Below are positions 2,090 to 53,620 of a DNA stretch of 64,000 nt, piece after piece; positions within the stretch are counted from its first letter, which is position 1; each line of letters starts with the position of its first letter. This DNA is from Methylacidimicrobium fagopyrum (lineage in GTDB: Bacteria > Verrucomicrobiota > Verrucomicrobiia > Limisphaerales > UBA11358). The position numbers and the translations under genes were made by a program. The stretch lies in contig JAMFSJ010000059.1 in assembly GCA_026225255.1 (NCBI GenBank), positions 38,311 through 102,310 on the forward strand. The letters are read 5' to 3'. A model generated the notes under the pieces. It saw only the letters and a program-made list of their open reading frames with translations. It was not told where the DNA came from and did no database searches.

Positions 2090-3565
2090 TCATTCCTTTT
2101 CCGCAAATAATCCGACTTCAGAAATCGCCGGGCAGACCGGCGCTTGCACGCGCAAGCGAACTTTATCCGTTGTGATTTTTTCACCGCGCACCAGACGGCA
2201 ATTACCGATGCTCGTGCCGTTGGCGAATTCAGTCCATTTACCGTCCAACCATTGATCGAGCGCAAAAGTTTCCACGCGCTGGCCGAGCGGTAAATATTCG
2301 CGAATCCGAACCACGTTGAACGTCAACGGCTTTTTGAACGTGAGCACCAATTCAGCATTCGTCACGCTGTCATCGGTGGACCAGTATTTATTATCTTTGC
2401 CAGCGACAATATTCTTCGGTGCAAATTGTTTGTCGTCGCCACGCGTATTTGATGCGGTGACCGTCGCTTTTTTAGCAAGATCAGTTTTGAATGTATCTTC
2501 GATAATTTTGTGAAACGCTTCCAATGATTTTACGTCAGGCGCAGCAATTTGACCGCGTTTGTCAGGTGGTAAATTTAACAACAAGTTCGCACCACGACCA
2601 ACGGACTTGTAATAGAGATCCACCAATTCCGCCGGGGTTTTGACCTTGGCATCCTGATCAGCGTGATAAAACCAACTGGGACGAATGGAAACATCGCACT
2701 CGGCGGGAATCCAATCCGTTCCGGGCCGATCGCCATGCGTTAATCCACCCGTTTTATCGGCGATTCCAGGACCATAGTTGGCGCCGTTCAAAGTCGCCCA
2801 ACATGTGAGGCCGGCCACACCGTATTCATTGCCCACCCAGCGGGCGTCCGGACCGCCGTCACTGAAAATAACGGCCTGCGGTTGTAATTCGCGGATGATG
2901 CTCCACGTGTTTGGCCAATCGTAATACGTCTTGCGATTGATCTCGCGCTTTTCCCTGGCGCCGCCGTAATAACCATCGCCACCGTTCGCGCCGTCGAACC
3001 ATACTTCATTGATCGGGCCGTAGTTCGTCAGCAATTCGCGGAGTTGCTGGCGGTAATGCGGGATATAAGCCGGGGTGCCGTAATCGGCGCGATTGCGATC
3101 CCACGGCGAAAGATAAATGCCGAACTTGATCCCGTTTTTTTTGCAGGCGTCGGAAATAGCTTTCACAACATCACCCTTGCCATTTTCCCAATCGGAATTT
3201 TTCACCGAATGTTCCGTGTAGGCGGAAGGCCAGAGACAGAAGCCATCGTGATGTTTGGCGGTAAAGATCAATTCTTTCATGCCGCCCGCCTTGGCCGCGC
3301 GGACAATCTGGTCGGCATCAAAATCTGTCGGGTTAAAAACCTTTTCACTCTCATCGCCATAACCCCATTCTTTGCCGGTGAAAGTATTGACGGTAAAATG
3401 CACGAAGCAGGTAAGCTCCATTTTCTGCCACGCGAGTTGCCGTTCACTTGGCACCGGGCCGTAGGGCGCAGGCGGTTCCACGGCCAGCACCGTGCCCGCC
3501 AAAAAAAGGCCAGACATGGCCACAGCTAAAAACTTCATTCGAAAGTTATTTTTGATTGAATTCAT
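2090..3565 (-). CDS. Secreted alpha-L-fucosidase (GH29) with C-terminal F5/8-type-C (discoidin) domain
   Basis: GH29 motifs are present: FVHFTVNTFTGKEWGYGDE, FTAKHHDGFCLWPS, IYLSPWDRN. The start was chosen at MNSIKNNFRMKFLAVAMSGLFLAG (signal peptide). The ORF is open up to 3634 and an alternative ATG lies at 3538. Confidence 0.85.
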   Translation of the reverse strand: MNSIKNNFRMKFLAVAMSGLFLAGTVLAVEPPAPYGPVPSERQLAWQKMELTCFVHFTVNTFTGKEWGYGDESEKVFNPTDFDADQIVRAAKAGGMKELIFTAKHHDGFCLWPSAYTEHSVKNSDWENGKGDVVKAISDACKKNGIKFGIYLSPWDRNRADYGTPAYIPHYRQQLRELLTNYGPINEVWFDGANGGDGYYGGAREKREINRKTYYDWPNTWSIIRELQPQAVIFSDGGPDARWVGNEYGVAGLTCWATLNGANYGPGIADKTGGLTHGDRPGTDWIPAECDVSIRPSWFYHADQDAKVKTPAELVDLYYKSVGRGANLLLNLPPDKRGQIAAPDVKSLEAFHKIIEDTFKTDLAKKATVTASNTRGDDKQFAPKNIVAGKDNKYWSTDDSVTNAELVLTFKKPLTFNVVRIREYLPLGQRVETFALDQWLDGKWTEFANGTSIGNCRLVRGEKITTDKVRLRVQAPVCPAISEVGLFAEKE

Positions 3566-3673: not shown

Positions 3674-5692
3674 TCATTTCACTGCGGCCGGCTGTTCATT
3701 CCAATAAAGATCGCCGAGCGAATCCGTGCCGCCATCGCCCTTGACCGAAGCCATGATGGTATAATGCGCTCCCGCTTTGGGCGCGGGCACTTCCAAGGTG
3801 AACGTAGCCTGGCGAGGTTCGTTGCCGGCAAAACCAGCATGCGTATCGCGACTGATTTCCTGACCATTTTCCGACAAGGCAACCCACGCGATGTCGAGGC
3901 CATCTTCACCGCGAGTATAATCAAACGTCACTTCCACTTTGCCCACCGCTTTGATTTGCGCCGTTACGTTCCACGTGAGCGACACCGCATCGCCCTGAAG
4001 TTGCACGGGTTTCCAAGTGCCGAATTTTTTGCGATCAATCCCTACGCCGAGGGTGGATTTGCGGTAATTCACGCCCAGCCCGTCAAGACGTTGCTCATTG
4101 ATTTTAACCCGTTGCACGAAGTCATCGTAGTTACGTGCGGCTTTCGGCGACCACGTCACTTCCGCCAACGCACACAAACGCGGGAACATCATGTATTCCA
4201 CGTGCGAAAACGAAGCGATGTATTCGGTCCACAAATTCCCCTGCCCGCCCAGAATGTGCGCGGCATTTTCCGGTGACAAACTGTCCGGCACCGGCTCGAA
4301 CGCATACACTTTTTCCAGCGGTAAAAAGCCACCGATCGCGTGCGGTTCCGTGGTGTGATTCTTGGATTGATAAAAGTCAAAATAGCAAAAGCCCGTCGGC
4401 GTCATCACTACGTTATGACCGGCACTCGCGGCTTCCTTGCCGCCACCGATCCAATCCATCACCACCGCGCTGCTGGCCAGACCGCCATGCGCGATTTCGC
4501 TCCAGCCGATGAGTGTTTTGTGATTCGCGGTGACAAAGGTTTCGATGCGACGGATGAACCAGCTTTGCAATTGATCTTCGTTTTTCAAGCCTTCGCGCTT
4601 CATCAATTCCTGACACGCCGGGTTATGTTTCCACGGACCAGTCGGCACTTCATCGCCGCCAATGTGGACGTATTTACCGGGAAACAGTGGAAATACTTCC
4701 GCCAACACGTTGTCGAGAAATTCAAACGTTTCTGGATTCGCCGGATTATAAACGCCAGCGTTCACGCCGCCTTTGAGCGGAATCGTCAGGAGCGTTTCGT
4801 TCGTCACGCTGGCAAATTGCGGATACGCCACGAGCGCCGCCGTAGAGTGACCGGGCATCTCGATCTCCGGAACCACCGTGATGTGCCGCGCCGCTGCATA
4901 GGCGACGACTTCACGAATGTCGTCTTGGGTGTAAAACCCACCGTAACGTCCATCCGGTCCGTAAGCCGTCGAAGAATTTGAGGCCAAACCAAAACCGACG
5001 CCGCTGCGCCAAGCGCCAACTTCGGTGAGCTTCGGATATTTTTTGATCTCAATCCGCCAGCCTTGATCATCCGTCAAATGCCAGTGGAACGTATTCAATT
5101 TATACAACGCCATCGTATCCAGCACGGTTTCAACTTGCGCTTTCGTGTAAAAATGGCGGCACACATCCAGCATAAAACCGCGCCAGGGGAAACGCGGTGA
5201 ATCGGTGATTTCAACCGTTGGGACTGACCAATTCACTCCCGCCACGACGTTCGAGGAAAAAATCGACGGCGGCAGTAATTGCAACAGCGTTTGCACCCCG
5301 TAAAAAAGTCCCGCCTGCGTTGGCGCACGAATAATCACGCTATTCGTAGTTACGGTCAACGCATAGCCTTCCTCGCCCAAATTGGCATCCGCACCTTTGG
5401 TCGTCAAAAAAATGGCACCGGTAATCGGCGCACTGGCAAACCATTTGGCGCCGGCCTTGAGCGGATATCCCGTGGCCGCATCCAATCGACCAGCCAGAAA
5501 TTCGGCCGTGGCGAGCGAAGCGGTGTCGCTGTAAATCCGCGTGGCGGCGGTCAACGGAAACGTGCCGTCGAACTGCTGGAGTTTTTGCGGTTGCGGAAGA
5601 ATGGACAATTCCGGTTTGTCAGCGGCAAACGCTGACGTCGCCAACACCAAGGCCGAAAAACCAGCCAGCCATTTTTTTTTGATGAATTTCAT
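3674..5692 (-). CDS. Secreted beta-N-acetylhexosaminidase (GH20) with C-terminal beta-sandwich domain
   Basis: Classic GH20 core: FHWHLTDDQGWRIEIKKYPKLT, PEIEMPGHS, VHIGGDEV. The start was trimmed to MKFIKKKWLAGFSALVLATSAFA (signal peptide, ATG 5692-5690). The longer ORF to 5893 would overlap the upstream gene. Confidence 0.9.
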   Translation of the reverse strand: MKFIKKKWLAGFSALVLATSAFAADKPELSILPQPQKLQQFDGTFPLTAATRIYSDTASLATAEFLAGRLDAATGYPLKAGAKWFASAPITGAIFLTTKGADANLGEEGYALTVTTNSVIIRAPTQAGLFYGVQTLLQLLPPSIFSSNVVAGVNWSVPTVEITDSPRFPWRGFMLDVCRHFYTKAQVETVLDTMALYKLNTFHWHLTDDQGWRIEIKKYPKLTEVGAWRSGVGFGLASNSSTAYGPDGRYGGFYTQDDIREVVAYAAARHITVVPEIEMPGHSTAALVAYPQFASVTNETLLTIPLKGGVNAGVYNPANPETFEFLDNVLAEVFPLFPGKYVHIGGDEVPTGPWKHNPACQELMKREGLKNEDQLQSWFIRRIETFVTANHKTLIGWSEIAHGGLASSAVVMDWIGGGKEAASAGHNVVMTPTGFCYFDFYQSKNHTTEPHAIGGFLPLEKVYAFEPVPDSLSPENAAHILGGQGNLWTEYIASFSHVEYMMFPRLCALAEVTWSPKAARNYDDFVQRVKINEQRLDGLGVNYRKSTLGVGIDRKKFGTWKPVQLQGDAVSLTWNVTAQIKAVGKVEVTFDYTRGEDGLDIAWVALSENGQEISRDTHAGFAGNEPRQATFTLEVPAPKAGAHYTIMASVKGDGGTDSLGDLYWNEQPAAVK

Positions 5693-7784: not shown

Positions 7785-7898
7785 CTCATAACGAGTGGTT
7801 GAGGGACTGGCCCGATGACACCACGGCAACCGATTGAACTTTGGTTTCAATGTCAGGTGCCAATTCCAGCCCAGCATCATTAGCTTGGGAAAAATGAG
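7785..7898 (+). promoter_or_regulatory. SAM-I (S-box) riboswitch aptamer
   Basis: CTCATAACGAGTGGTTGAGGGACTGGCCCGATGACACCACGGCAACC...AGGTGCCAATTCCAGCCCAGC...GGGAAAAATGAGAAG. P1 pairs CTCAT (7785-7789) with ATGAG (7894-7898). All conserved S-box blocks are present: GAGGGA, CUGGCCCGAUGA, GGCAACC, GGUGCCAAUUCC. Confidence 0.9.
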
Positions 7899-7919
7899 AA
7901 GCGATGCACAACCGTTTTG

Positions 7920-7957
7920 TCGCCCCTTCTCCTTGTGAGTCGGGGCTTTTTTGTTTT
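7920..7957 (+). terminator. Riboswitch expression-platform intrinsic terminator
   Basis: Stem gcccc..ctc / gag..ggggc (7922-7946) followed by ttttttgttttt. Confidence 0.7.
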
Positions 7958-7965
7958 TAACGAAT

Positions 7966-8030
7966 CATCCTCGTCGTCATCGTCATTCTCATAAATCGAA
8001 ATTGAGGATGACGATGAGAACGAGGACGAG
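7966..8030. repeat. Palindromic element, gaggatgaNgaNgag family
   Basis: Arms catcctcgtcgtcatcgtcattctca (7966-7991) and tgaggatgacgatgagaacgaggacgag (8003-8030). A second copy lies at 24588-24670. Confidence 0.6.
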
Positions 8031-8048
8031 AAAAATTGAAATTTATTT

Positions 8049-9305
8049 ATGAGTGAACAACACGGTTTCATGAAAGCGCTCAAGTGCCGCGAATGCGGCC
8101 GCGAATATCCGCTCACGGCTACGCACGTCTGCGAATTTGACTTCGGCCCGCTTGAGGTCGCCTACGATTACGAGCGCATCAAAAAATCGCTCACGCGCGA
8201 AGCCATCGCGTCGCGCCCGAAAACCATGTGGCGTTATCGCGAACTGCTGCCCATCGCCGGCGAACCGACGGTCGGCAAGCAAGTCGGTTTCACGCCGCTC
8301 GTGAAGGCCGATCGCCTCGCGAAGAAACTCGGCATCCGCGAACTTTACATCAAAAACGACGCCGTGAATTATCCGACGCTCTCGTTCAAGGACCGCGTCG
8401 TCAGCGTTGCGCTGAGCCGCGCGAAGGAACTCGGTTTTGAAACCGTTGCATGTGCGTCCACCGGCAATTTGGCCAACTCCGTTGCCGCCAATGCGGCGAG
8501 CGCGGGCTTAAAATCCTACGTTTTTATTCCGTCGGATTTGGAACAGGGAAAAATTTTGAACTCGCTCATCTACGGCGCAAACGTCATCGCCATCAAAGGC
8601 CATTACGACGAAGTGAATCGTCTCTGCGCCGAGATCGCGGGCAAGTTCGGCTGGGCGTTCGTGAACGTCAATATGCGCCCCTACTATGCCGAAGGCTCAA
8701 AGAGCATGGCGTATGAGATCGCCGAACAACTCGGTTGGAAATTGCCGGATCACACGATTGTCCCGATGGCGTCCGGCTCGTTGCTGACGAAGATTCACAA
8801 AGGCTATCAGGAATTGACCAAGCTAGGTTTGGTGTCGGCGCACAATACGCACATCCACGGGGCGCAGGCGACGGGCTGTTCGCCGATTTCGGTTGCGCAA
8901 AAAGCGGGCTTGGATTTCTTCAAGCCGGTGAAGCCCGACACGATCGCGAAATCACTCGCCATTGGCACGCCGGCGGACGGTTTCTATGCGCTCAAAGTGA
9001 TGCGCGAAACAGCCGCCTACGCCGACGACGTGAGCGACGACGAAATCCGCGACGCGATCAAATTGCTCGCGGAAACGGAAGGCATTTTTGCCGAGACCGC
9101 CGGCGGCGTGACCGTAGGCGTGGCCAAAAAACTCATCGCGTCCGGTAAGATTCCGAAAGATTCTTCGGCCGTGATCTGCGTCACTGGCAATGGATTAAAA
9201 ACGCTCGACGCCGTCAACGGTTACTGCGGCAAACCGCGCGAAATCAAGCCAAGTTTGCGTGAGTTTGAAGCATTGTTGGCGCACGAAGAAAAAGTCGGTG
9301 TATAA
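8049..9305 (+). CDS. Threonine-synthase-family PLP enzyme (ThrC paralogue; predicted O-phosphohomoserine-dependent homocysteine synthase)
   Basis: 418 aa. It has an N-terminal Cys ribbon (CRECGREY...HVCEFDFG) and the PLP-lysine motif YPTLSFKDR. Family assignment is firm. The homocysteine role is inferred from the SAM riboswitch and the adjacent GG-carrier. Confidence 0.85.
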   Translation: MSEQHGFMKALKCRECGREYPLTATHVCEFDFGPLEVAYDYERIKKSLTREAIASRPKTMWRYRELLPIAGEPTVGKQVGFTPLVKADRLAKKLGIRELYIKNDAVNYPTLSFKDRVVSVALSRAKELGFETVACASTGNLANSVAANAASAGLKSYVFIPSDLEQGKILNSLIYGANVIAIKGHYDEVNRLCAEIAGKFGWAFVNVNMRPYYAEGSKSMAYEIAEQLGWKLPDHTIVPMASGSLLTKIHKGYQELTKLGLVSAHNTHIHGAQATGCSPISVAQKAGLDFFKPVKPDTIAKSLAIGTPADGFYALKVMRETAAYADDVSDDEIRDAIKLLAETEGIFAETAGGVTVGVAKKLIASGKIPKDSSAVICVTGNGLKTLDAVNGYCGKPREIKPSLREFEALLAHEEKVGV

Positions 9306-9326: not shown

Positions 9327-9602
9327 ATGTCAAAGAAAGTCCGCATCCCAACGCCGCTCCGCAAGTTGACCAACAACGAAGAGCTGGTTGAAATTAATTC
9401 CGCCACCATCGGCGAGGCCATTGCTGAATTGCAAGCGCGCTTCCCCGGCATCGCCGAACGGCTCATAGACGAAAAAGGCGAAGTGCGCCGCTTCGTCAAC
9501 GTTTACGTGAATGAGGAAGACATCCGCTTCCTCGAAAACAGCGCGACGAAGCTCAATGATGGCGACGAAATCAGCATCATTCCGGCCATCGCAGGCGGTT
9601 AG
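9327..9602 (+). CDS. ThiS/MoaD/CysO-type beta-grasp sulfur-carrier protein (C-terminal Gly-Gly)
   Basis: 91 aa ending ...DGDEISIIPAIAGG followed by the stop codon. The size and C-terminus are typical of thiocarboxylate carriers. Confidence 0.8.
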   Translation: MSKKVRIPTPLRKLTNNEELVEINSATIGEAIAELQARFPGIAERLIDEKGEVRRFVNVYVNEEDIRFLENSATKLNDGDEISIIPAIAGG

Positions 9603-9613
9603 TCATCAAAGTA

Positions 9614-9679
9614 GGAGACGACGTGAGATGTCTCTGATATTTTTGAAAAATCGACACTGTGAGACTCGTCACCTCGTCT
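9614..9679. repeat. Imperfect inverted repeat between carrier and NIL genes
   Basis: ggagacgacgtgagatgtctc (9614-9634) versus gagactcgtcacctcgtct (9661-9679). 15 of 19 positions are complementary by hand alignment. Confidence 0.4.
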
Positions 9680-9698
9680 TTTACAAAAAATTAAAATT

Positions 9699-9983
9699 AT
9701 GGCCGCCAAAAAGAAAATCATCGTCACCAAGCCCAACGCACCGGTGCAACAGCGTCTGTGGCTGATGTATCCGCCGAAGCTGATCAAGAAGCCGTTCATC
9801 TACGAGGTCGGCCATAAATTCAAGGTCGTGACGAATATCCGCCAAGCCAGCGTGACAGACGAGATCGGCATCGTCTGCCTCGAACTCGACGGCCCGCGCA
9901 GCGAAGTCGCCGCCGCCATTAAATGGTTGGAGAAAAACAAAGTGAACGTGGAGCCGGTGGAGATCGGCGTGATTGCCGGTTGA
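9699..9983 (+). CDS. Stand-alone NIL-domain protein (MetN C-terminal-type domain)
   Basis: 94 aa. KVVTNIRQASVTDEIGIVCLELDGPRSEVAAAIKWLEKNKVNVE resembles the NIL ferredoxin-like fold of methionine-importer ATPases. Confidence 0.6.
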   Translation: MAAKKKIIVTKPNAPVQQRLWLMYPPKLIKKPFIYEVGHKFKVVTNIRQASVTDEIGIVCLELDGPRSEVAAAIKWLEKNKVNVEPVEIGVIAG

Positions 9984-10004
9984 ATTAATTTGTGGGGACA
10001 AATG

Positions 10005-10046
10005 AAACGGCGCGGAGAATTTTCTCCGCGCCGTTTTTTATTTTTC
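10005..10046 (+). terminator. Intrinsic terminator of the riboswitch operon
   Basis: Perfect 14-bp stem aaacggcgcggaga (10005-10018) / tctccgcgccgttt (10023-10036), 4-nt loop, then a T-run. Confidence 0.85.
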
Positions 10047-10055
10047 GCGACCAAA

Positions 10056-10259
10056 GCGAATTAAGTGCCAAAGGCACGGACGGAAATTAGCCAGCTACGA
10101 AGTGTCTGGTAATATTCTAAAGATTTCTCCGTCCCGGCGGGACGGTGGAAATATTTGTGAGTGACCATGCGTTCAATTTTCCTTCGTCCTTTCAGGACGT
10201 TTCATTGATCACCAATAACCCGGCACGATGTGCCAGGCTAATTTCCGCAGTCGATTCGC
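10056..10259. repeat. BIME-like mosaic of small GC-rich hairpins
   Basis: Local hairpins: gtgccaaaggcac (10065-10077), ccgtcccggcgggacgg (10129-10145), cgtcctttcaggacg (10185-10199), ggcacgatgtgcc (10222-10234). They are framed by cggaaattagcc (10081-10092) / ggctaatttccg (10235-10246) and gcgaat (10056-10061) / attcgc (10254-10259). Confidence 0.5.
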
Positions 10260-10345
10260 GACGCAGCAAGGCTTGTGAGAAGTTCAAAACAATTAGAATC
10301 AAAACTCGGCGGTCTATAGCACGGTGACATAGACAGCCGCTACAA

Positions 10346-10384
10346 ATAAAAAAACGGCGCGATGACATTCATCGCGCCGTTTTG
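10346..10384 (-). terminator. Intrinsic (bidirectional) terminator after atpC
   Basis: Stem acggcgcgat (10354-10363) / atcgcgccgt (10371-10380), flanked by an A-run and a T-run. It lies 16 nt downstream of the atpC stop. Confidence 0.8.
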
Positions 10385-16124: not shown

Positions 16125-17162
16125 TTAATGACTGTGTTCGTCGTCCGTGTGGGAACAAAGCGTTCCCGCGAAGGCCACCGTCAACATTGCAAACACAAAG
16201 GCTTGCAACGCGCACACCACGGTTTCAAAAAAGTAACCCGGCAAGGCGAGCAGCACAGCCATCAAGACCGACTTCTGCGACATCGCCATCGTCAACATCG
16301 TTTCGCCGCCGAAAATATTTCCGTAAAGACGCAACGCGAGCGCCACCGGACGGATGAACAAAATGGAGAACGATTCCATGACACCGATGAAAATGAACAG
16401 TAACAGCAACAACGGATACAACCATTTGGTCGTTGCGACTTTGACGCCGAAGACGTGTTTCACAAGCCCAATCGGGCCGTTATATTTGAGCGCCCAATAA
16501 AGGCACATCACAAAGAAAATTCCCGCCATCGCCACTGTCAAATTGGCATCGGTCGTGGGCGGACGAAAAAACGGCGTCGCTACGTGCGGCACAGAAAACG
16601 GCAGCGAACTAGTCTTATCAATTTCCGCCGTCGGAACAAAACCAATACTACCCATGCCCGGCAGCAAATCGGTGAAATTGGAAATCATGATGAAGATCAA
16701 ATAAGTCGCCGCCAACGGAAAAACCCACTTAACGACTTTCGGCTCCAACACGTTGCCCATCAAATTTTCCCAACCTTCCAAAACCGCTTCCATGAAATTC
16801 TGACCGGAGCTCGGAATTTCTTTCACTTTCCAAACCGTCACGCGAACAATGACAATGATCAACAAGGCTACGATCCAAGTGCAGATCATTGAATTGGTAA
16901 CCGGCAGCGGTCCGATATGAAAAACGGTCAAGGCCGATTGCGAAACGAGCGGTTGCGAGGCCTCAGCGTGAGCGGACTCCACCGCTTGCACCACTGCCGA
17001 CGGCGCCGGAGCAGAAGAAACTGCAGCGTTCGCTCCGACCACAAAAGTCGTCGCAAACAAAATCAAAAACAGAATTAATCGGCTGATTTGCTTCACAAAA
17101 AATGATACCGAACGACACCAATTGCTACGGTTAGTTAAACCGATGATGTGATCGGGAAACAA
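16125..17162 (-). CDS. atpB: Fo ATP synthase a subunit with long N-terminal extension
   Basis: 345-aa ORF. The C-terminal half has a-subunit motifs (LALRLYGNIFGGE with the essential Arg). The true start is uncertain; the ORF begins with a non-ATG codon and an internal GTG near 17095 is possible. Confidence 0.8.
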   Translation of the reverse strand: MFPDHIIGLTNRSNWCRSVSFFVKQISRLILFLILFATTFVVGANAAVSSAPAPSAVVQAVESAHAEASQPLVSQSALTVFHIGPLPVTNSMICTWIVALLIIVIVRVTVWKVKEIPSSGQNFMEAVLEGWENLMGNVLEPKVVKWVFPLAATYLIFIMISNFTDLLPGMGSIGFVPTAEIDKTSSLPFSVPHVATPFFRPPTTDANLTVAMAGIFFVMCLYWALKYNGPIGLVKHVFGVKVATTKWLYPLLLLLFIFIGVMESFSILFIRPVALALRLYGNIFGGETMLTMAMSQKSVLMAVLLALPGYFFETVVCALQAFVFAMLTVAFAGTLCSHTDDEHSH

Positions 17163-47096: not shown

Positions 47097-48104
47097 ATGG
47101 CTGGATTTCTTGACGATATTGAACCGCTGAAACAAACTGCGCTGACGGAATTGAAAAACGCGCCCGATCTCGCCGCCTTGGAACAAACCAAAGGCGCGTG
47201 GGTCGGACCGAACGGCAAATTCACCGCGCTGATGAAACAGCTCGGCACGCTTTCCAAGGAAGAAAAGCCCGCCGCCGGAAAATTGATCAATGCCGCCAAG
47301 GTCGAACTCGAAACCGTGCTCGTCGCGCGCCGGGAAGAATTGGAACTCAAAGCTGCGTTGCCGAAGGAACCGACCGATTTCACCCTGCCCGGCCGCCGCC
47401 GCGCGCTCGGCAAATTGCATCCGCTTACGCAGGTCACCGATGACATCGTCCGCGCCTTCCGCAAAATTGGTTTCGCCGTCGCCGACGGACCGGAGATCGA
47501 GGACGAATATCATTGCTTCGACGCGCTCAACACGCCCGCCGACCATCCGGCGCGCGATGCGCAGGATACATTTTATCTCAACACGACGGATAAGCGTTTG
47601 CTCCGCACGCACACCTCGTCGGTGCAAATTCGCGTGATGAAATCGCAACCGCCACCGGTGCGCATCATCGTGCCGGGCCGCGTGTATCGCCGCGACAACG
47701 CCGACGCCACGCATAATCCGACATTCCACCAAATCGAAGGTCTTTACGTGGATAAAAACGTCACCGTAGGCGACCTGAAAGGCACCGTGGAATTCGTCTT
47801 CCGCGAACTCATGGGCAGCGACGTGAAGATCCGTTTCCGTCCGCATTATTTCAGCTACACCGAGCCGAGCTACGAGATTGATTTCACCAACGCGCTCGTG
47901 AAGAAGATGGGCAAGGACTGGCTGGAGATCGCCGGCTGCGGCATGGTGCATCCGCAAGTCTTCGAGAACGTCGGCTACGATCCCGAAACGTGGACCGGCT
48001 GGGCCTTCGGCTTCGGCATCGAACGCATCGCCATGCTCCGCTACGGCATCAATGACATCCGGCTGTTCTACGAGAACGATGCAAAGTTTTTGAAACAGTT
48101 TTAA
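47097..48104 (+). CDS. pheS: Phenylalanine--tRNA ligase alpha subunit
   Basis: 335 aa. Class II motifs are present: DHPARDAQDTFYL, RTHTSSVQIR, FRPHYFSYTEPSYEID, GWAFGFGIERIAML. Confidence 0.95.
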   Translation: MAGFLDDIEPLKQTALTELKNAPDLAALEQTKGAWVGPNGKFTALMKQLGTLSKEEKPAAGKLINAAKVELETVLVARREELELKAALPKEPTDFTLPGRRRALGKLHPLTQVTDDIVRAFRKIGFAVADGPEIEDEYHCFDALNTPADHPARDAQDTFYLNTTDKRLLRTHTSSVQIRVMKSQPPPVRIIVPGRVYRRDNADATHNPTFHQIEGLYVDKNVTVGDLKGTVEFVFRELMGSDVKIRFRPHYFSYTEPSYEIDFTNALVKKMGKDWLEIAGCGMVHPQVFENVGYDPETWTGWAFGFGIERIAMLRYGINDIRLFYENDAKFLKQF

Positions 48105-48118
48105 TTTATACAATCTAG

Positions 48119-48907
48119 ATGTCCACTGACGTCAATCTAAACGCAGAATTCGCGGTGGTTTTCAATAACTTCCTTTTGCAAACCAATAAAATTATAACGT
48201 TTAGAAATGATGTTTTATTTTTAATTGAAAATGGTAAAGACCAACTGCTTTCAAAAGCGAATCAAAAAATTCGAATCATAAAGGATTTCAGCAAAAGTGC
48301 AAAAACGCCAATAAAAGTCACACCAGAAGTTGAAAAAATGGTTGGCGAAAGCTTAGACGCCTTCCAATTTGTGAAAAATCCCGATATTTCAATTCGACAT
48401 TCAAAAAGAAGAATTGATGCAGCCACAATCGTTTTCATCCACTCCCTGCTTGATGCTACGATTTACTCCCTATGCAAAATAAGTCATTCATTAAATTCAA
48501 ATGATTGGACACCCTTTATAAAAGACCGAAAAATAGAAATTGAAACGGTTCTAGCGAATACCAAAGATAAGGTTATTCAAGCTGCCACTGAAAAATTTCT
48601 CATCAGTTTAGAGCGCGAGTCTATCGTTAAAAGATCCGATATTTTACATGCAATTTGTAAACCCACACCACAGACCAAGCATGCAAATAATTTCGTGTTT
48701 TCTAAAGCTTCCTTGGAAGCATTTGATAATTTATGGCACGATATTGTGCACGGACAACAATCCGGGAGAGAGATTTTCACCATTGATCAGGAATTAAATT
48801 TTGGACTTAAGGCCGGAGTTTACTTTTCATCAATGGTTAGACACAAATACGGGCTTGAAAAAGAAATTTCTGAACAACAATACGAACAATTAGTCTCTGA
48901 AAACTAA
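48119..48907 (+). CDS. Low-GC orphan protein, possible HEPN-type domain
   Basis: 262-aa ORF starting 14 nt after the pheS stop. Hand count of 48121-48240 gives 37 G+C in 120 nt (31%). It contains an Rx4H motif (KRSDILHAI, R172-H177) and a second degenerate one (NLWHDIVHG). I recognise no family. Confidence 0.6.
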   Translation: MSTDVNLNAEFAVVFNNFLLQTNKIITFRNDVLFLIENGKDQLLSKANQKIRIIKDFSKSAKTPIKVTPEVEKMVGESLDAFQFVKNPDISIRHSKRRIDAATIVFIHSLLDATIYSLCKISHSLNSNDWTPFIKDRKIEIETVLANTKDKVIQAATEKFLISLERESIVKRSDILHAICKPTPQTKHANNFVFSKASLEAFDNLWHDIVHGQQSGREIFTIDQELNFGLKAGVYFSSMVRHKYGLEKEISEQQYEQLVSEN

Positions 48908-48969
48908 TTTGAAAGCTGTGTTATTTTTGATTAGCAAGTGAACAATTTAACACACGGCTAGCTGATTGG

Positions 48970-49191
48970 TTAAATTTTATACGGCACCCAAATCCCCGCG
49001 TCCTCCTCCGAGAAATCTTTCGTATTCCGCGTCACCAAAATCCACCCCAGTTCCTTCGCCGTCGCCCAGATAATTGCGTCCGGTAGTTTCAGTTTGTGCT
49101 GACGCCGAATTTTTATTGCCCGTTCGGCCACGGCTTTTTCCACGGGTTGAACCTTGAAGCGGGAGAGAAATTCCCACGTGATCGCTTCTTC
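48970..49191 (-). pseudogene. VapC (PIN-domain toxin) C-terminal remnant
   Basis: Hand translation gives EEAITWEFLSRFKVQPVEKAVAERAIKIRRQHKLKLPDAIIWATAKELGWILVTRNTKDFSEEDAGIWVPYKI then stop. The LPDAIIxATA and LVTRNxKDF blocks are typical of the second half of PIN toxins. The frame has no ATG, lacks the N-terminal DxN half, and has no antitoxin gene. Confidence 0.5.
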
Positions 49192-49310
49192 TCGCCATCC
49201 TCTGCTCCAGCCAGAAGTTTTTCCAAGAATTTGATTCCGTGAACAGCGTCTTTAGTGTTTCCTTTCGAACGAGGTTTTAATCGAAGTAAACAGTTAACCC
49301 TAAATCATTT

Positions 49311-50072
49311 ATGAAAAATCTATCCGTCCGCTTTGAACTCTTTTTCAGCCTGACTATCGCCGCGCTTATCACGGTTGGTTGTCAAAGTTCTAATTCTAGC
49401 GGCGGCTCAGGGACGACGTCGCCGGCCGTTTCGGGAGCCACGGTGCAAACACACGCATCGCAGACGGCGATGACGCCGGCGCAGGCGCTCGCTGAATTGA
49501 AAGCGGGCAACGATCGCTTCGTCACCGACAAACCGTTGCATCGCGATTTTCCCACGCAAGTCAAAGCCACCGCCGCCGGGCAATATCCGTTCGCTGTGGT
49601 CTTGAGTTGTTTGGATTCGCGTCAACCCATCGAAATCGTTTTGGATCAGGGCGTCGGCGATATTTTCAGCGCGCGCGTCGCCGGCAATGTGTTGAATGAC
49701 GACATTCTTGGCAGTATGGAATTCGCCTGCAAAGCTTCCGGCTCGAAGCTGATCGCGGTCATCGGCCATTCCAATTGCGGCGCGGTCAAAGGCGCGATTG
49801 ATGACGTCCAACTCGGCAATCTCACCGGCTTGCTCACGAAAATTAAACCGGCGATTGATGCGGTGCCGGAAGATGATCAGGCGCGCAATTCGAAGAATTA
49901 CAAGTTCGTGGATGAAGTTTCTGAAGCAAACATAAAGTTGGTGCTGAAAGAAATCCGCGAGCGCAGTCCGATTCTCCGCGAGATGATCGATAAAGGCGAA
50001 ATCGGAATCGTCGGCGGCATGTATGATCTGAAGACTGGTAAGGTGCAGTTTTACGAAAACGATTCCAAATGA
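49311..50072 (+). CDS. Beta-class carbonic anhydrase, lipoprotein-type signal
   Basis: 253 aa. Lipobox-like ITVGCQSS. Zinc ligands SCLDSR and GHSNCGAV. Confidence 0.85.
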   Translation: MKNLSVRFELFFSLTIAALITVGCQSSNSSGGSGTTSPAVSGATVQTHASQTAMTPAQALAELKAGNDRFVTDKPLHRDFPTQVKATAAGQYPFAVVLSCLDSRQPIEIVLDQGVGDIFSARVAGNVLNDDILGSMEFACKASGSKLIAVIGHSNCGAVKGAIDDVQLGNLTGLLTKIKPAIDAVPEDDQARNSKNYKFVDEVSEANIKLVLKEIRERSPILREMIDKGEIGIVGGMYDLKTGKVQFYENDSK

Positions 50073-50121
50073 AAGCGGCGCTTAACCGGTTCAAACCGTC
50101 AGCTGATTTTCGTTTAATCGT

Positions 50122-50793
50122 GTGAAGGAGTTCTTCGCCACCCTGCCCCGCAACATCCTCGGCTGTTTCCGTGGCGGGATGATTCTCTGGCATTTGGTGC
50201 TCATCGCCCTCACCTTCTTGATCGTCAGTTCCGGTTTCGATTGGTTTTATTTCTGTTCCACCCGCAGTCCGTTGCTGTGGGCTTGGATGTTTCCCGCCGC
50301 ATCGATCGGCGGGCTCGTGCCGCTGATGTTGCCGCTCATCTTGATTGTGTCCGGCTACATCACAAGTCACGTCCGAATCTCCCGCACCGGCTGGGCCATC
50401 GGCCAGGCGGCGCTCATTGGCTCGCTGATTTCTTCCACTTACAAAGCGTTCACGGGTCGCGTTCATCCGTCCCTGCACGAGACCGGCGCGGACATCAGTC
50501 GCGATTTCCGGTTTGGCCTGCTGCACGGCGGAGTGTTCTGGGGCTGGCCGTCGTCACACACCACCATCGCCTTTGCCATGGCGGTCACGGTGTTCATCCT
50601 ATTCCGCAAACAGCGATGGCTTGGCTGGCTGGCATTGATTTACGCTTTTTACATCGGCCTCAGTGTTTCGATGACCATCCATTGGTTTTCAGATTTCGTG
50701 GCAGGCGCAATTTTGGGCACGGTCATCGGCGTGGTCGTGGGAAAAAGTTTTTCGGCTGGAGAATCAAAGCCCTTGCCGCCGGGAATTTCCTGA
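50122..50793 (+). CDS. PAP2-family membrane phosphatase
   Basis: 223 aa, polytopic. PAP2 motifs are present: KAFTGRVHP (KxxxxxxRP), WPSSHT (PSGH-like), HWFSDFVAG (HxxxD). Confidence 0.75.
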   Translation: MKEFFATLPRNILGCFRGGMILWHLVLIALTFLIVSSGFDWFYFCSTRSPLLWAWMFPAASIGGLVPLMLPLILIVSGYITSHVRISRTGWAIGQAALIGSLISSTYKAFTGRVHPSLHETGADISRDFRFGLLHGGVFWGWPSSHTTIAFAMAVTVFILFRKQRWLGWLALIYAFYIGLSVSMTIHWFSDFVAGAILGTVIGVVVGKSFSAGESKPLPPGIS

Positions 50794-50843
50794 TTCGATA
50801 TCGCGCGCCAGTTTTTGAGTAAAATCTCCTACAAACCTCCACG

Positions 50844-51085
50844 CAGGATTTTGCGGGAGCCATCGGAAATTTCACGGGAACGACTCAGGATATTGCAGGA
50901 ACGACCGAGAATTTCGCGGGCAGAGGCCAGGATTCTGCAGGAACGATCTGGAACTTTGCGGAAGAAGCCGTAATTTGGAGGGAATCACACAGAACTTTGC
51001 AGGCGGCCTTCAGGATTTTGCAGGAACCGTTCGGAACTTAGTAGGAGGAGCCTAGAATTTCATAGGAACGGCGGAAAACTTCCGA
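50844..51085 (+). repeat. Phased tandem array, about 11 x 21 bp (22 GGA half-sites)
   Basis: Unit = RGGAWTTTGC + AGGAACGNNNN. Anchor positions are 50855, 50876, 50897, 50918, 50939, 50959, 50980, 51001, 51022, 51043, 51064. Confidence 0.8.
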
Positions 51086-51175
51086 TTTTCGCCGCGCGAA
51101 ACCGCCGGACAGGCAGATTTTCCATAAATTCGGCTGGAGAAACCGACGTTTCAAGGGTATTTTTCCCGGCACGAA

Positions 51176-53620
51176 ATGAAAGTCACCCTTAACTGGCTCA
51201 AACAATATGTTGATTTCAACTGGTCGCCCGAGGAATTGACCGAACGGCTCACCATGCTCGGCCTCGAAGTCGAGGGCGTGCAGAAAATTTCCGGCGCGTT
51301 CGACGGCATCGTCGTCGCGCAAGTGATCACGCGCGATAAACATCCAGGTGCAGACAAACTGTCGATCTGCCGCGTCAATGACGGCACGGGCGAACGCCAG
51401 ATTGTCTGCGGCGCGCAAAATTTCAAAGCGGGCGACAAAGTCCCGCTCATCCTGCCCGGCGCGTCGTTGCCGTTGAAGCCCGGCGACAAGGAACCGTTCA
51501 CCATCAAGGTCGGCAAGATTCGCGGCGTGGAATCACACGGCATGTTGTGTTCGCATGAAGAATTGGGACTTGATCCCGATGCTATCGGCCACAAAAAAGA
51601 AGATGGCTTGCTCATCCTGCGCGAAGACGCGAAGGTCGGCCAACCGTTCGGCGAATATCTCGGCCGCAGCGGCAGCGATGTGGTCTATGATTTGGAAGTC
51701 ACCCCGAACCGTCCGGACTTAAACAGTCTTATCGGCATCGCGCGTGAAATCGCGGCGGTCACGGGCAATGCGTTGCGCATTCCTGAATTAAAAACTCAAA
51801 ATCTAAAATTAAAAACTGCCGACCTCGTCGCCGTTCGTCTCGAAGATTCAGAGAATTGCCCACGCTACACCGCCCGTGTCATCAAAGGCGTGAAAGTTGG
51901 ACCGAGCCCGGATTGGCTGAAATCGGCGCTGGAAAAAGTCGGCATCCGCAGCATCAGTAATATCGTGGACGTGACGAATTACGTCATGCTGGAAAGCGGC
52001 CAACCGTTGCATGCATTTGATTATCATCTCATCGCCAAAAGTGCGGACGGCAAACCAACCATCGTCGTCCGTCGCGCGACGGCGGAAGAAAAATTCAAGA
52101 CGCTCGACAACCAAGAACGCACGCTCGCGGCGGAAATGTTATTGATCGCCGACGAACAAAAAGCCATCGCGCTCGCCGGCGTCATGGGCGGCGCGAATAC
52201 GGAAATCAACAGCGACACCAAAGACGTGCTGCTCGAGAGCGCGTATTTCTCGCCCGTAAATATCCGCCGCACGAGCAAGCTGCTCGGCTTGCGCACGGAT
52301 GCGAGCTATCGCTACGAACGCGGCGCGGATGTGGGCATTTGCGATTGGGCGAGCCAACGCGCGGCGCAATTAATTTTAGAAACCGCCGGTGGCGAATTGG
52401 CCGAAGGCGTCGTGGACGTTCAACCGCAAATCAAAGCGGCGAAGGAAATTGTTTTGCATTATGCAAAAACGGACGCGCTGTTGGGTGTGCATATTTCGCA
52501 CGCAGAACAACTCTCGCATCTCACCAAACTCGGTTTGACGTTGATCGAACAAACGCCCGGTGTTTGCACGTTCAAAACGCCGTCGTGGCGCGTAGACTTG
52601 AAACGCGAAGTGGATTTGATCGAAGAAGTCGGACGCTTGCACGGCGTGAATAATATTCCCAGCACGCCGCCCCGCGGTACCATCGGCGCGAATGCATTCG
52701 ATACCGTGTATGATCAAATCGCTGAAGTGCGCCGCATCTTGAGCAGCCTCGGTTTGAACGAAGCGCAAGGGCAAACGCTCATCGCAAAGTCAGAATGCAG
52801 AAGTCAGAACGCGGAAGAAATTGTCGCGCTCGCGAATCCGTTAAGTTCGGACATGGACGTTTTACGCCCAAGTTTGTTGCCCGGATTGATTCATTCGCTG
52901 CGCCATAATGTCAGCCGCAAGAATTACGACGTGGCGTTGTTTGAAGTTGGTCGCGTGTTCACCAACGTGAACGGTCAGACGAAAGAAAATCGCAGCATCG
53001 CCATCGCCATCACCGGCCAACGCGCCCTGCCCTTTTGGAGCGGCGGCGAACGCGACGCCAAGTTTGACGCCTATGATTTGAAAGGGCTCGTCGAAGATTT
53101 GCTGGAGCAATTTGGTTTGCGCGGCATCGTGTTCGGCAAACGTGCGGAAAGCACGGGATTATTCCTGGAATCTGCCGCCGTGACGCTTGGTGGAAAATTG
53201 CCATTAGGTGAACTTGGACAATTGTTGCCGCCGCTCGCTAAAAAATACGATCTGCGCGACGCCGTTTATCTCGCGGAATTTAATCTCGACCTGCTGCTCG
53301 CCAAACGCAATGCGGCGAAGTCGTTCAAGGCGTTGCCGCAATTTCCATCGAGCCGGCGAGACGTGGCAATTCTCGTTGCCGAAGCGACCACGCACGAAGC
53401 CGTATTGCAAACCGTCAAATCCGCCAAGCCCGCGAATCTGGAAAGTCTCGAGTTGTTCGACGTGTTCCGCGGCAAAGGCATTCCCGAAGGTCAAAAAAGT
53501 TTGGCCTATGCGTTCACCTATCGTTCACCGGAAAAAACGTTGACCGATGCCGACGTGAACGGCGCGCACGAAAAAGCCGTGGAAAGTTTGACGCAGAAAT
53601 TAGCCGCAGTCGTGCGCTGA
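51176..53620 (+). CDS. pheT: Phenylalanine--tRNA ligase beta subunit
   Basis: 814 aa. It has an N-terminal tRNA-binding OB domain (KHPGADKLSICRVNDG), B3/4 and B5 domains, and a C-terminal FDX-ACB domain. Confidence 0.95.
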   Translation: MKVTLNWLKQYVDFNWSPEELTERLTMLGLEVEGVQKISGAFDGIVVAQVITRDKHPGADKLSICRVNDGTGERQIVCGAQNFKAGDKVPLILPGASLPLKPGDKEPFTIKVGKIRGVESHGMLCSHEELGLDPDAIGHKKEDGLLILREDAKVGQPFGEYLGRSGSDVVYDLEVTPNRPDLNSLIGIAREIAAVTGNALRIPELKTQNLKLKTADLVAVRLEDSENCPRYTARVIKGVKVGPSPDWLKSALEKVGIRSISNIVDVTNYVMLESGQPLHAFDYHLIAKSADGKPTIVVRRATAEEKFKTLDNQERTLAAEMLLIADEQKAIALAGVMGGANTEINSDTKDVLLESAYFSPVNIRRTSKLLGLRTDASYRYERGADVGICDWASQRAAQLILETAGGELAEGVVDVQPQIKAAKEIVLHYAKTDALLGVHISHAEQLSHLTKLGLTLIEQTPGVCTFKTPSWRVDLKREVDLIEEVGRLHGVNNIPSTPPRGTIGANAFDTVYDQIAEVRRILSSLGLNEAQGQTLIAKSECRSQNAEEIVALANPLSSDMDVLRPSLLPGLIHSLRHNVSRKNYDVALFEVGRVFTNVNGQTKENRSIAIAITGQRALPFWSGGERDAKFDAYDLKGLVEDLLEQFGLRGIVFGKRAESTGLFLESAAVTLGGKLPLGELGQLLPPLAKKYDLRDAVYLAEFNLDLLLAKRNAAKSFKALPQFPSSRRDVAILVAEATTHEAVLQTVKSAKPANLESLELFDVFRGKGIPEGQKSLAYAFTYRSPEKTLTDADVNGAHEKAVESLTQKLAAVVR

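Follow-up and report, generated by a model that had tools for sequence, protein, structure and literature searches.

Helically phased 20–21-bp tandem-repeat arrays upstream of pheT in Limisphaerales, a candidate protein-binding DNA element within a pheS–pheT insertion hotspot

The window, as we call the whole 64,000-nucleotide stretch of Methylacidimicrobium fagopyrum DNA analysed here, carries pheS at 47097–48104 and, 3.1 kb further 3', pheT. Between them lies an island of accessory DNA holding a low-GC gene of 262 aa, a truncated vapC, a carbonic anhydrase gene, a PAP2-family phosphatase gene, a tandem-repeat array and a leader. Elsewhere the window consists of ordinary chromosomal sequence with glycosidases, the ATP synthase operon, aminoacyl-tRNA synthetases, two-component systems and 2-oxoacid dehydrogenase genes, and no tRNA was found in it. 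All PheT homologues at 71–90% identity are named as Verrucomicrobia or Limisphaerales, in keeping with an origin of the window in Verrucomicrobia subdivision 3 (Limisphaerales), and an exact-protein look-up of the window PheT gave no record. The features of the locus are the following.

48105–51175, no strand assigned: pheS–pheT island, about 3.1 kb of accessory DNA interrupting the usual pheST operon
50122–50793, + strand: PAP2-family phosphatase gene (Pfam), co-directional with the array and ending 50 nt before it
50844–51073, + strand: eleven clear 21-bp units (autocorrelation, unit table with information content, permissive Tandem Repeats Finder (TRF) run, alignment with the contigs L097 and L112)
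51074–51094, + strand: degenerate twelfth unit GAAAACTTCCGATTTTCGCCG, whose 21-nt counterpart is absent from L112 (exact gap of 21 columns)
51116–51130, + strand: T/A-rich block GATTTTCCATAAATT, invariant columns in alignment A2, directly 5' of the −35-like hexamer
51135–51140, + strand: −35-like hexamer TGGAGA (alignments A1 and A2), 17 bp from the −10-like hexamer
51158–51163, + strand: −10-like hexamer TATTTT (alignment A2), with TAnnTT invariant in 10 loci
51176–53620, + strand: pheT (phenylalanyl-tRNA synthetase beta subunit; ORF), the gene directly 3' of the array, whose ATG lies 82–102 bp from the array end

The array consists of 12 head-to-tail units at 50844–51094. The original prediction had described it as strictly phased with about 11 copies of a 21-bp unit; the period of 21 was recovered, one unit measures 20 nt and the number of units is twelve. 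They start at these positions:

Units 1–6: 50844, 50865, 50886, 50907, 50928, 50949 (20 nt)
Units 7–12: 50969, 50990, 51011, 51032, 51053, 51074

Each unit is laid out as the core caGGATTTcGCGGGAa at unit positions 1–16 followed by a variable spacer of 5–6 nt, and the twelfth unit overlaps an inverted repeat with a 9-bp stem at 51069–51094. The periodicity is real and well above chance: over 50844–51085 the identity autocorrelation reached 0.52 at lag 21, 0.57 at lag 42 and 0.45 at lag 63 against a background of about 0.2–0.3 at other lags, and an 18-mer consensus searched with up to three mismatches matched four times, always within the array (0.08 in shuffled sequences). A repeat-family search also returned a 42-nt family. 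Tandem Repeats Finder, suggested earlier as a check, made no call at this position with default settings because the copies are only about 50–85% alike, whereas permissive settings found the array at 50841–51082 with a period of 42, 5.8 copies and a score of 187. As units 1, 3, 5 and 9 are mutually 76–86% identical and the other units are much more diverged, a 42-bp super-period lies on top of the 21-bp repeat. Array and leader are reproduced at 100% identity along their whole length by an independent Logan assembly (L193, SRR18933205), which rules out an assembly artefact.

GGA occurs 19 times on the + strand and once on the − strand, compared to 6.6 ± 2.1 in shuffled sequences; about 22 copies had been announced. 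These had been arranged into two equivalent GGA half-sites per unit, a description that does not hold, as the conserved positions A-T-T-T and G-G-A both fall inside one roughly 15-nt core and the first GGA is missing from several units of the window. The GGA at unit positions 13–15 is the most conserved element, with the GC-rich block GCGGGA being conserved as much as the A/T block, and the arrays are biased towards G (31–40%) over C (19–24%). Contrary to the earlier statement that no ORF with a start codon is present, ORFs with TTG or GTG starts cross the array at 50815–50973 (+) and 50872–50988 (−), yet nothing supports their status as genes.

Orthologous arrays of 12 units are present in two metagenomic contigs and can be aligned with that of the window one unit at a time; in both contigs the array is followed by a leader identical in kind to the window leader:

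L097: array at 617–868, pheT ATG at 948, twelve caGGATTTcGCGGGAa units plus 5–6 nt
L112: array at 2827–3075, pheT ATG at 3138, twelve caGGATTTcGCGGGAa units plus 5–6 nt

PheT is 79–83% identical among the three loci and 52–64% of the 4-fold synonymous sites of pheT are identical. Between orthologous units the core (unit positions 2–16) shows 73–85% identity compared to 42–62% for the spacer, a difference that is significant in two of the three pairs (Fisher, p = 3e-6) with p = 0.11 for the window and L097, while the core also exceeds the 4-fold sites with p values from 0.019 to 3e-10. In two of the three pairs spacers of the same index are 55–62% identical and those of different index 34–35% (42% and 39% for the window and L112). 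This positional identity in two pairs indicates that the core consensus has been kept by selection at each site and not by homogenisation, and that the three arrays go back, each position separately, to an ancestor with 12 units. Upstream of unit 1 the flank is unalignable among the orthologues (33–42%). A conserved core, spacers drifting like synonymous sites and an unalignable flank together point to twelve sequence-specific sites under purifying selection. Despite about 30% substitution only 1–2 single-base indels per ~250 bp were observed, all of them in spacers; the sole larger indel adjoins the predicted promoter and comprises exactly 21 nt, so that the phase to this promoter is kept, and the mean period of the orthologous arrays is 20.8–20.9 bp. 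Core identity within the array is 66% in the window against 76–82% in the other two; the copy of the window is thus the most degenerate one and may be under relaxed selection. Conservation in relatives, which had been proposed as a check, thus gave a mixed result, with the array being present in L097 and L112 and this array type missing from the closest sampled relatives L001 and L013, which have a carbonic anhydrase gene and a VapBC pair upstream of pheT, respectively. A position weight matrix of the window unit detected no array in 80 species-level relatives, and arrays in relatives emerged only with a period-based search.

A leader of ~55 nt directly before the pheT ATG is common to ten loci (alignment A2), which have three different array types or no array at all. 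Its invariant blocks are a T-rich stretch, T(T/G)GAG(T/A), a 17-bp spacer, TAnnTT and about 12 nt before the ATG, and a sister subfamily of leaders shows TTGAGT at the −35-like hexamer. We take the leader to be a probable sigma70-type promoter with a predicted start near 51170, so that the pheT mRNA would have almost no leader, and the T/A-rich block GATTTTCCATAAATT resembles an UP element. A consensus promoter scan of 50000–52000 gave no promoter-like site and no terminator on the + strand; the leader promoter is not called by such a generic scan because it matches at 8 of 12 positions. With a promoter-like leader between array and ATG, the array is located upstream of the promoter, at about −75 to −330 if the predicted promoter is correct. 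As the leader directly abuts the upstream gene in L086, L089 and L109, where the array is absent, the array appears to be an accessory to the promoter and not a part of it.

Eight further loci have arrays with the same geometry (20–21 bp) and unit sequences unrelated to those of the window. Six of these eight arrays comprise 9–14 units, and those of L085 and L057 have 4–6:

L017: TGACACG core, period 21 bp, 14 units
L049: CgAaTTCcTGCAcGCg, period 21 bp, 12 units
L008: TTTCCAnCgGaanaCGcCGt, period 20 bp, 12 units
L009: tTTgCAGgCTTgcAAaGcC, period 21 bp, about 10 units
L001: TGATTGattAAA, period 21 bp, about 10 units
L057: gGCaAATctgCggAT, period 21 bp, about 6 units
L085: ATTGACCgTGATCCTG, period 21 bp, 4–5 units
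L194: CTGAYRTCAG core, period 21 bp, about 9–12 units

All eleven arrays are located upstream of pheT within the pheS–pheT interval. We define the family by at least four units of 20–21 bp in a pheS–pheT island on the pheT strand side, often 63–110 bp upstream of the pheT ATG and ahead of the conserved leader; it includes the window array and ten further members, and nine of the eleven arrays have at least 9 units. No such array was found elsewhere in about 1.2 Mb of sampled sequence, neither in ~0.7 Mb of pheT and downstream sequence nor in the remaining upstream sequence, and none in the other 63.6 kb of the window. Similarity of unit profiles across types was not significant, being marginal for L049(−)/GGA(+), L085/L049 and L057/L009, and homology between the array types cannot be shown from these profiles. 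Dyad symmetry of the unit consensus exceeds chance only in L009, the units being mostly asymmetric direct repeats, so the idea that all units are palindromic operator sites was dropped. A period close to two helical turns combined with varying sequence fits a constraint on DNA geometry, which neither RNA recognition nor coding would predict.

The gap between pheS and pheT varies among relatives from 16 nt to more than 4 kb, with PAP2, carbonic anhydrase, VapBC, Mrr, methyltransferase, acyltransferase, LemA and uncharacterised genes as cargo. Inside the island the 5' end of pheT is duplicated in at least 16 loci, with one to four co-oriented copies per locus. These duplicates cover the first 15–38 codons (nt 1 to about 75–92) and are located at cassette boundaries; all but three start no more than 17 nt from the ATG, and the end falls at +73 to +92 in 11 of 16. 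Fragments of the pheS 3' end are also present in islands. In L112, L049, L017 and L009 the array is the sole content between two pheT 5' copies, and in six loci the distance from the array to the duplicated pheT segment is 63–110 bp. A pheT stub precedes PAP2 in L008, L066, L194 and L195 and lies ~2.7 kb upstream in L196, and PAP2 followed by an array was seen three times (window, L008 and L194), each time with another unit type. No recombinase was found near the islands, all islands and the window lack rep, par, integrase and excisionase genes, and PADLOC returned nothing for the island proteins. The pattern fits repeated insertion, of the Campbell type or site-specific, into the 5' end of pheT, with the incoming DNA possibly supplying a new leader and sometimes an array. 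In P. aeruginosa a defence hotspot next to pheS, pheT and rplT has been described (PMC10250203); it adjoins the pheST operon, whereas the Limisphaerales island sits inside it.

We favour, at a probability of roughly 0.45, the reading that the array is a cis-acting, helically phased protein-binding DNA element with twelve putative sites. A putative DNA-binding protein, probably oligomeric or cooperative, would bind to each core, and with the sites being two helical turns apart all of them would face the same side of the duplex. Occupancy would coat or wrap about 250 bp, and the bound array could either adjust the activity of the internal pheT promoter or shield it from transcription that comes out of the inserted accessory genes. 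We prefer action on DNA over action as RNA because the period is common to unrelated arrays, the core is selected at 12 positions, the phase to the promoter is kept and the coding, structured-RNA and plasmid or phage readings failed their tests. A phased protein-binding array had also been one of the two readings of the original prediction, and this part is the best supported one (period, spacer indels, phase and core selection), although the specific families that it named fail. Counting against protein binding is that the array is optional among relatives. Neither the window nor the islands yielded a candidate for the binding protein, and tblastn with approximate query sequences for CsrA, MraZ, Lrp and Fis gave no match in the window. 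As the unit sequences are unrelated between lineages, several different proteins or a rapid co-evolution would be needed. Furthermore, no terminator separates the array from PAP2, so that read-through transcription of the array is probable as well, and the GGA strand bias of the array would also suit a role at the RNA level.

Several other explanations have to be weighed against this protein-binding array. The duplicated pheT ends suggest that the array might be the cis module of a mobile cassette, in the form of iterons, a centromere-like site or accessory sites (arm-type or for a directionality factor), which would serve replication, segregation or recombination of elements inserting at the first ~90 bp of pheT and not pheT expression. 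The insertion hotspot, the pheT 5' copies at cassette boundaries, the four arrays standing alone between two such copies, the short and recurrent distance to the duplicated segment and the asymmetric direct repeats all agree with this, as does the constant geometry with diverse unit sequences, which is the pattern of iterons and plasmid centromeres. Nevertheless, genes for replication, partition or recombination are missing from islands and window, many cassettes have the leader and no array, and no AT-rich unwinding region is found beside the array. BLAST against plasmids (72,556) and phages gave no match, and in viral contigs no pheT 5' fragment was found and the 15-mer core gave single chance matches only. 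The orthologues moreover look vertically inherited and selected with synonymous sites near saturation, which is unexpected for relics of integration, and we regard this explanation as unlikely. Just as doubtful is the wider proposal that the arrays are the cis module of an undescribed Limisphaerales cassette platform, in which mostly co-oriented accessory genes would be stacked between pheS and pheT. Recombination would take place in the ~90 bp at the start of pheT, and with every insertion a stub of the pheT 5' end would stay behind and a new leader and promoter would arrive, similar to an integron with the 5' end of an essential gene as attachment site. The 12 x 21-bp arrays would provide lineage-specific sites for loading proteins, by which the cassettes are controlled or maintained. 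Somewhat less probable than these, in our view, is that the array acts as RNA, transcribed by read-through from PAP2 or from the pheS operon, with its 12–19 GGA binding a protein of the CsrA/RsmA type or another RNA-binding protein as a sponge or as a control region of pheT. The excess of GGA on the + strand, its high conservation, the largely unstructured, G-rich RNA predicted and the co-directional upstream genes with no terminator between PAP2 and the array would suit such a role, and the 21-nt spacing falls in the range bridged by CsrA dimers. The sponge of the CsrB/Rsm type that had been suggested earlier nevertheless found no confirmation: folding, proposed to see whether GGA sits in loops, revealed no GGA-presenting hairpins and was no better than in shuffles (z of −0.86 and +0.39 for the two strands of the array; −0.45 for the window, −0.98 for L097 and −2.1 for L112), Rfam had no match even at E <= 10, and the array has neither a promoter nor a terminator of its own. 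By tblastn no csrA was found in the window, where Pfam scans also bore out the earlier statement on rep and par genes. In addition, the equally conserved ATTT block is outside any CsrA site, a conserved promoter-like leader follows downstream of the array, and sister arrays without GGA (TGACACG, TTTGCAGnCTTGCAAA, CTGAYRTCAG) keep the 20–21 period, for which RNA recognition offers no explanation.

The remaining explanations do without a binding partner. A non-functional minisatellite, in which slippage within neutral island DNA amplified a 21/42-bp unit whose copies are now decaying, would account for the low similarity of the window units, to which default TRF is blind, for the lack of the array in the closest relatives, for its position in a recombination-prone hotspot and for the window copy being the most degenerate of three orthologues. 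We think it improbable: the cores of the orthologues are conserved well above spacers and synonymous sites, orthology is positional with no homogenisation, the few single-base indels all fall into spacers, and eight other arrays with this period, six of them with 9–14 units, occur at the same place and none elsewhere in about 1.2 Mb. Even less credit is given to intrinsic curvature alone, in which in-phase bends would stimulate the promoter with no dedicated protein. A 21-bp period does sum unit bends coherently, and a wedge model gave end-to-end/contour ratios of 0.65–0.72 for the window, L009, L017 and L049 with none of 200 shuffles being as curved. The same model, run with approximate parameters, predicts no curvature for L112 (0.97), the best-conserved orthologue, nor for L008 and L001, and the GCGGGA block is no less conserved than the A/T block. 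Finally, 21 bp correspond to seven codons, and the + frame reads Q-[DN]-F-A-G-T-x, with the columns of the third codon phase being least conserved (summed information 5.3 vs 7.0 and 7.3 bits) and the variation TTT/TTC and GCG/GCA looking synonymous. The decayed heptad-repeat protein gene thereby suggested, which had been named before as an outcome that would overturn the binding array, is very improbable and was rejected. Its frame has no start codon and contains one frameshift and in-frame stops, 5.8 billion protein clusters hold no homologue even at E <= 10, and Pfam and NCBIfam gave only noise for the frame-corrected peptide. The frame-breaking ±1 indels also differ between the orthologues, the period of 20 in L008 cannot encode heptads, and the conserved block is a contiguous ~15-nt core plus a variable 6-nt spacer with no 3-nt periodicity.

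Returning to the phased protein-binding array, we found no description in the literature of pheT-upstream repeats or of a pheS–pheT cassette site in Verrucomicrobia, and the 20–21-bp arrays upstream of pheT form a previously undescribed family in a pheS–pheT insertion hotspot. Twelve conserved sites at two-turn spacing upstream of an essential translation gene would imply a large nucleoprotein assembly, and to our knowledge nothing of this kind has been described for aminoacyl-tRNA synthetase genes or in Verrucomicrobia. The recurring geometry with unrelated units would point to fast-evolving protein–DNA pairs, a pattern otherwise typical of plasmid iterons and centromeres and found here in a chromosome. 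With its repeated pheT 5' stubs the island might represent a gene-capture site of a new kind, and it offers a concrete case of an essential operon taking up accessory genes while the downstream gene stays expressed.

Among known systems, plasmid iterons are similar to the array: they too are direct repeats of ~21 bp that follow one another without gaps, are for the most part asymmetric and stand in helical phase, each with a conserved core and a variable remainder, and their sequence varies by lineage while the geometry is kept. The gamma origin of R6K has seven contiguous 22-bp iterons, and pPS10 and RK2 are also iteron plasmids. The array shows the 17–22-bp direct repeats in helical phase that are characteristic of iterons. 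Unlike iterons it is chromosomal, located between pheS and pheT, and has 12 copies instead of 3–7; Pfam detected no adjacent Rep gene among 40 window ORFs, an AT-rich unwinding element is absent (GC 0.50–0.53 across 50700–51300) and no cluster of DnaA boxes was seen by eye beside the array. Tandem-repeat centromeres are represented by parC of R1 (10 x 11 bp), parC of pSK41 (~20-bp repeats) and sopC of F (12 x 43 bp), which are coated cooperatively by a small DNA-binding protein and diversify in sequence between systems. With its ten to twelve phased tandem repeats the array matches the ParR/SopB-type layout, yet no parMR, parAB or sopAB operon is present in the window or in array-bearing islands, and the downstream gene is the essential housekeeping gene pheT. 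The likeness to iterons and ParR-type centromeres that had been put forward originally is therefore one of geometry, with rep/par genes, the unwinding region and a plasmid context all absent.

The sponge RNAs CsrB, RsmY and RsmZ share with the array many GGA on one strand (19 in 242 nt), and its CAGGAU resembles the CsrB repeat CAGGA(U/A/C)G; they differ from it in having GGA hairpins, their own promoter and terminator and an Rfam family; the Rfam scan at E <= 10 over 50800–51200 returned nothing for the array. Type III toxin–antitoxin repeats (ToxI, CptI) are similarly tandem, directly upstream of a gene and placed in an accessory or defence-like island. Repeats of the ToxI type are 34–57 nt long, occur in 2–5.5 copies and are followed by a terminator and a nuclease gene of the ToxN/AbiQ type, whereas the array has 12 units of 21 nt, pheT as the next gene and no terminator that we could find. 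CRISPR arrays combine identical repeats of 23–47 nt with unique spacers of similar length and cas genes. Such an array was rejected here, as the units are contiguous and all related to one consensus and no CRISPR match was obtained at this position.

Operator arrays for regulators that form rings or filaments are a further comparison, with MraZ boxes as the example: these are four GTG(G/T) with 6-nt spacers and are bound cooperatively by an opened octamer (PMC12957436). They share with the array direct repeats at helical spacing upstream of a promoter and, if the array binds a protein as proposed, would also share one oligomer subunit per repeat and a binding that depends on spacing. They differ in having 4-nt cores, 10-bp spacing and 3–4 copies upstream of mraZ, compared to a ~15-nt core, 21-bp spacing and 12 copies upstream of pheT. 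As the defining genetic contexts of iterons, tandem-repeat centromeres and MraZ-type operator arrays are absent, the pheT-upstream array is filed outside of them, with phased direct-repeat binding arrays.

The pheS-pheT interval of the Limisphaerales is a hypervariable insertion hotspot (window 48105-51175; among the relatives, loci L001-L160 upstream of pheT). The distance between the two genes ranges from 16 nt up to more than 4 kb in the Limisphaerales loci, and the normal two-gene pheS/pheT operon is interrupted by a cargo including PAP2, carbonic anhydrase, VapBC, Mrr, methyltransferase, acyltransferase and LemA genes among others. The boundaries of the inserted cassettes carry co-oriented stubs in which pheT codons 1 to 15-38 are duplicated, mostly starting at the ATG and ending at about +75 to +92.

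Duplicated pheT 5' stubs in loci of relatives (coordinates of each locus)
L008 1521-1563
L009 1113-1201, 1418-1504 and 2240-2304
L017 3132-3228 and 3452-3501
L038 2186-2267 and 2951-3042
L049 1965-2043
L108 3336-3503
L112 2688-2762
L144 345-450
L154 3450-3530
L194 892-942
L195 2864-2929

As the stubs are located at cassette boundaries and several of them have a Glu-to-Gly variant (ELTGRL) in common, they suggest that related incoming DNA recombined repeatedly into the pheT 5' end. We also looked for a pheT stub in the window itself and detected none. The islands also hold duplicated fragments of the pheS 3' end (…NDVRFLKQF*; L108 about 3850-3885 and L195 2173-2238), and stubs have therefore been left by both flanking core genes.

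Within the window island, a 262-aa ORF (48119-48907, + strand) begins 15 nt past the pheS stop codon and shows a GC content of 30-38% compared to about 52% in its surroundings. It gave no hit in Pfam or PADLOC, and a homologue with 33% identity is present at the same position in L034. The gene was probably gained by horizontal transfer. The truncated PIN-domain (vapC) fragment at 48970-49143 (- strand) was left behind by an earlier cassette. It is very similar to the C-terminal half of an intact vapC in L013 (3324-3692), where a full VapBC pair is located between PAP2 and pheT.

The last, degenerate unit of the 21-bp array is overlapped by an inverted repeat with a 9-bp stem (CGGCGGAAA…TTTTCGCCG, window 51069-51094), which is not followed by a T-run and is not kept in L097 or L112. 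Using the weight matrix of the array unit, a single isolated match was found inside the ATP synthase A-chain gene (window 16782-16802, - strand, score 18.2); no copies adjoin it and it was taken as chance. In L194 the island contains Mrr, a pheT stub and PAP2, followed downstream by a 21-bp array (about 1745-2000, core CTGAYRTCAG), making this the third pairing of PAP2 with an array, each with a different unit sequence. L003 has two long tandem repeats downstream of pheT (7883-8791 and 9358-10352; period 168 bp, 5-6 copies, about 71% matches), which probably belong to the coding sequence of a large protein and have no connection with the 21-bp array. L056, with pheS and pheT adjacent, carries three copies of a 20-bp repeat upstream of pheS (2734-2793, CCTATTCAAGGTCATTCAAG, 92% matches).

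A homologous element of about 215 bp is present in two different species (L009 1205-1418 and L017 3228-3452), in both cases flanked by two pheT 5' stubs, and its long imperfect terminal inverted repeats make it MITE-like or attC-like.
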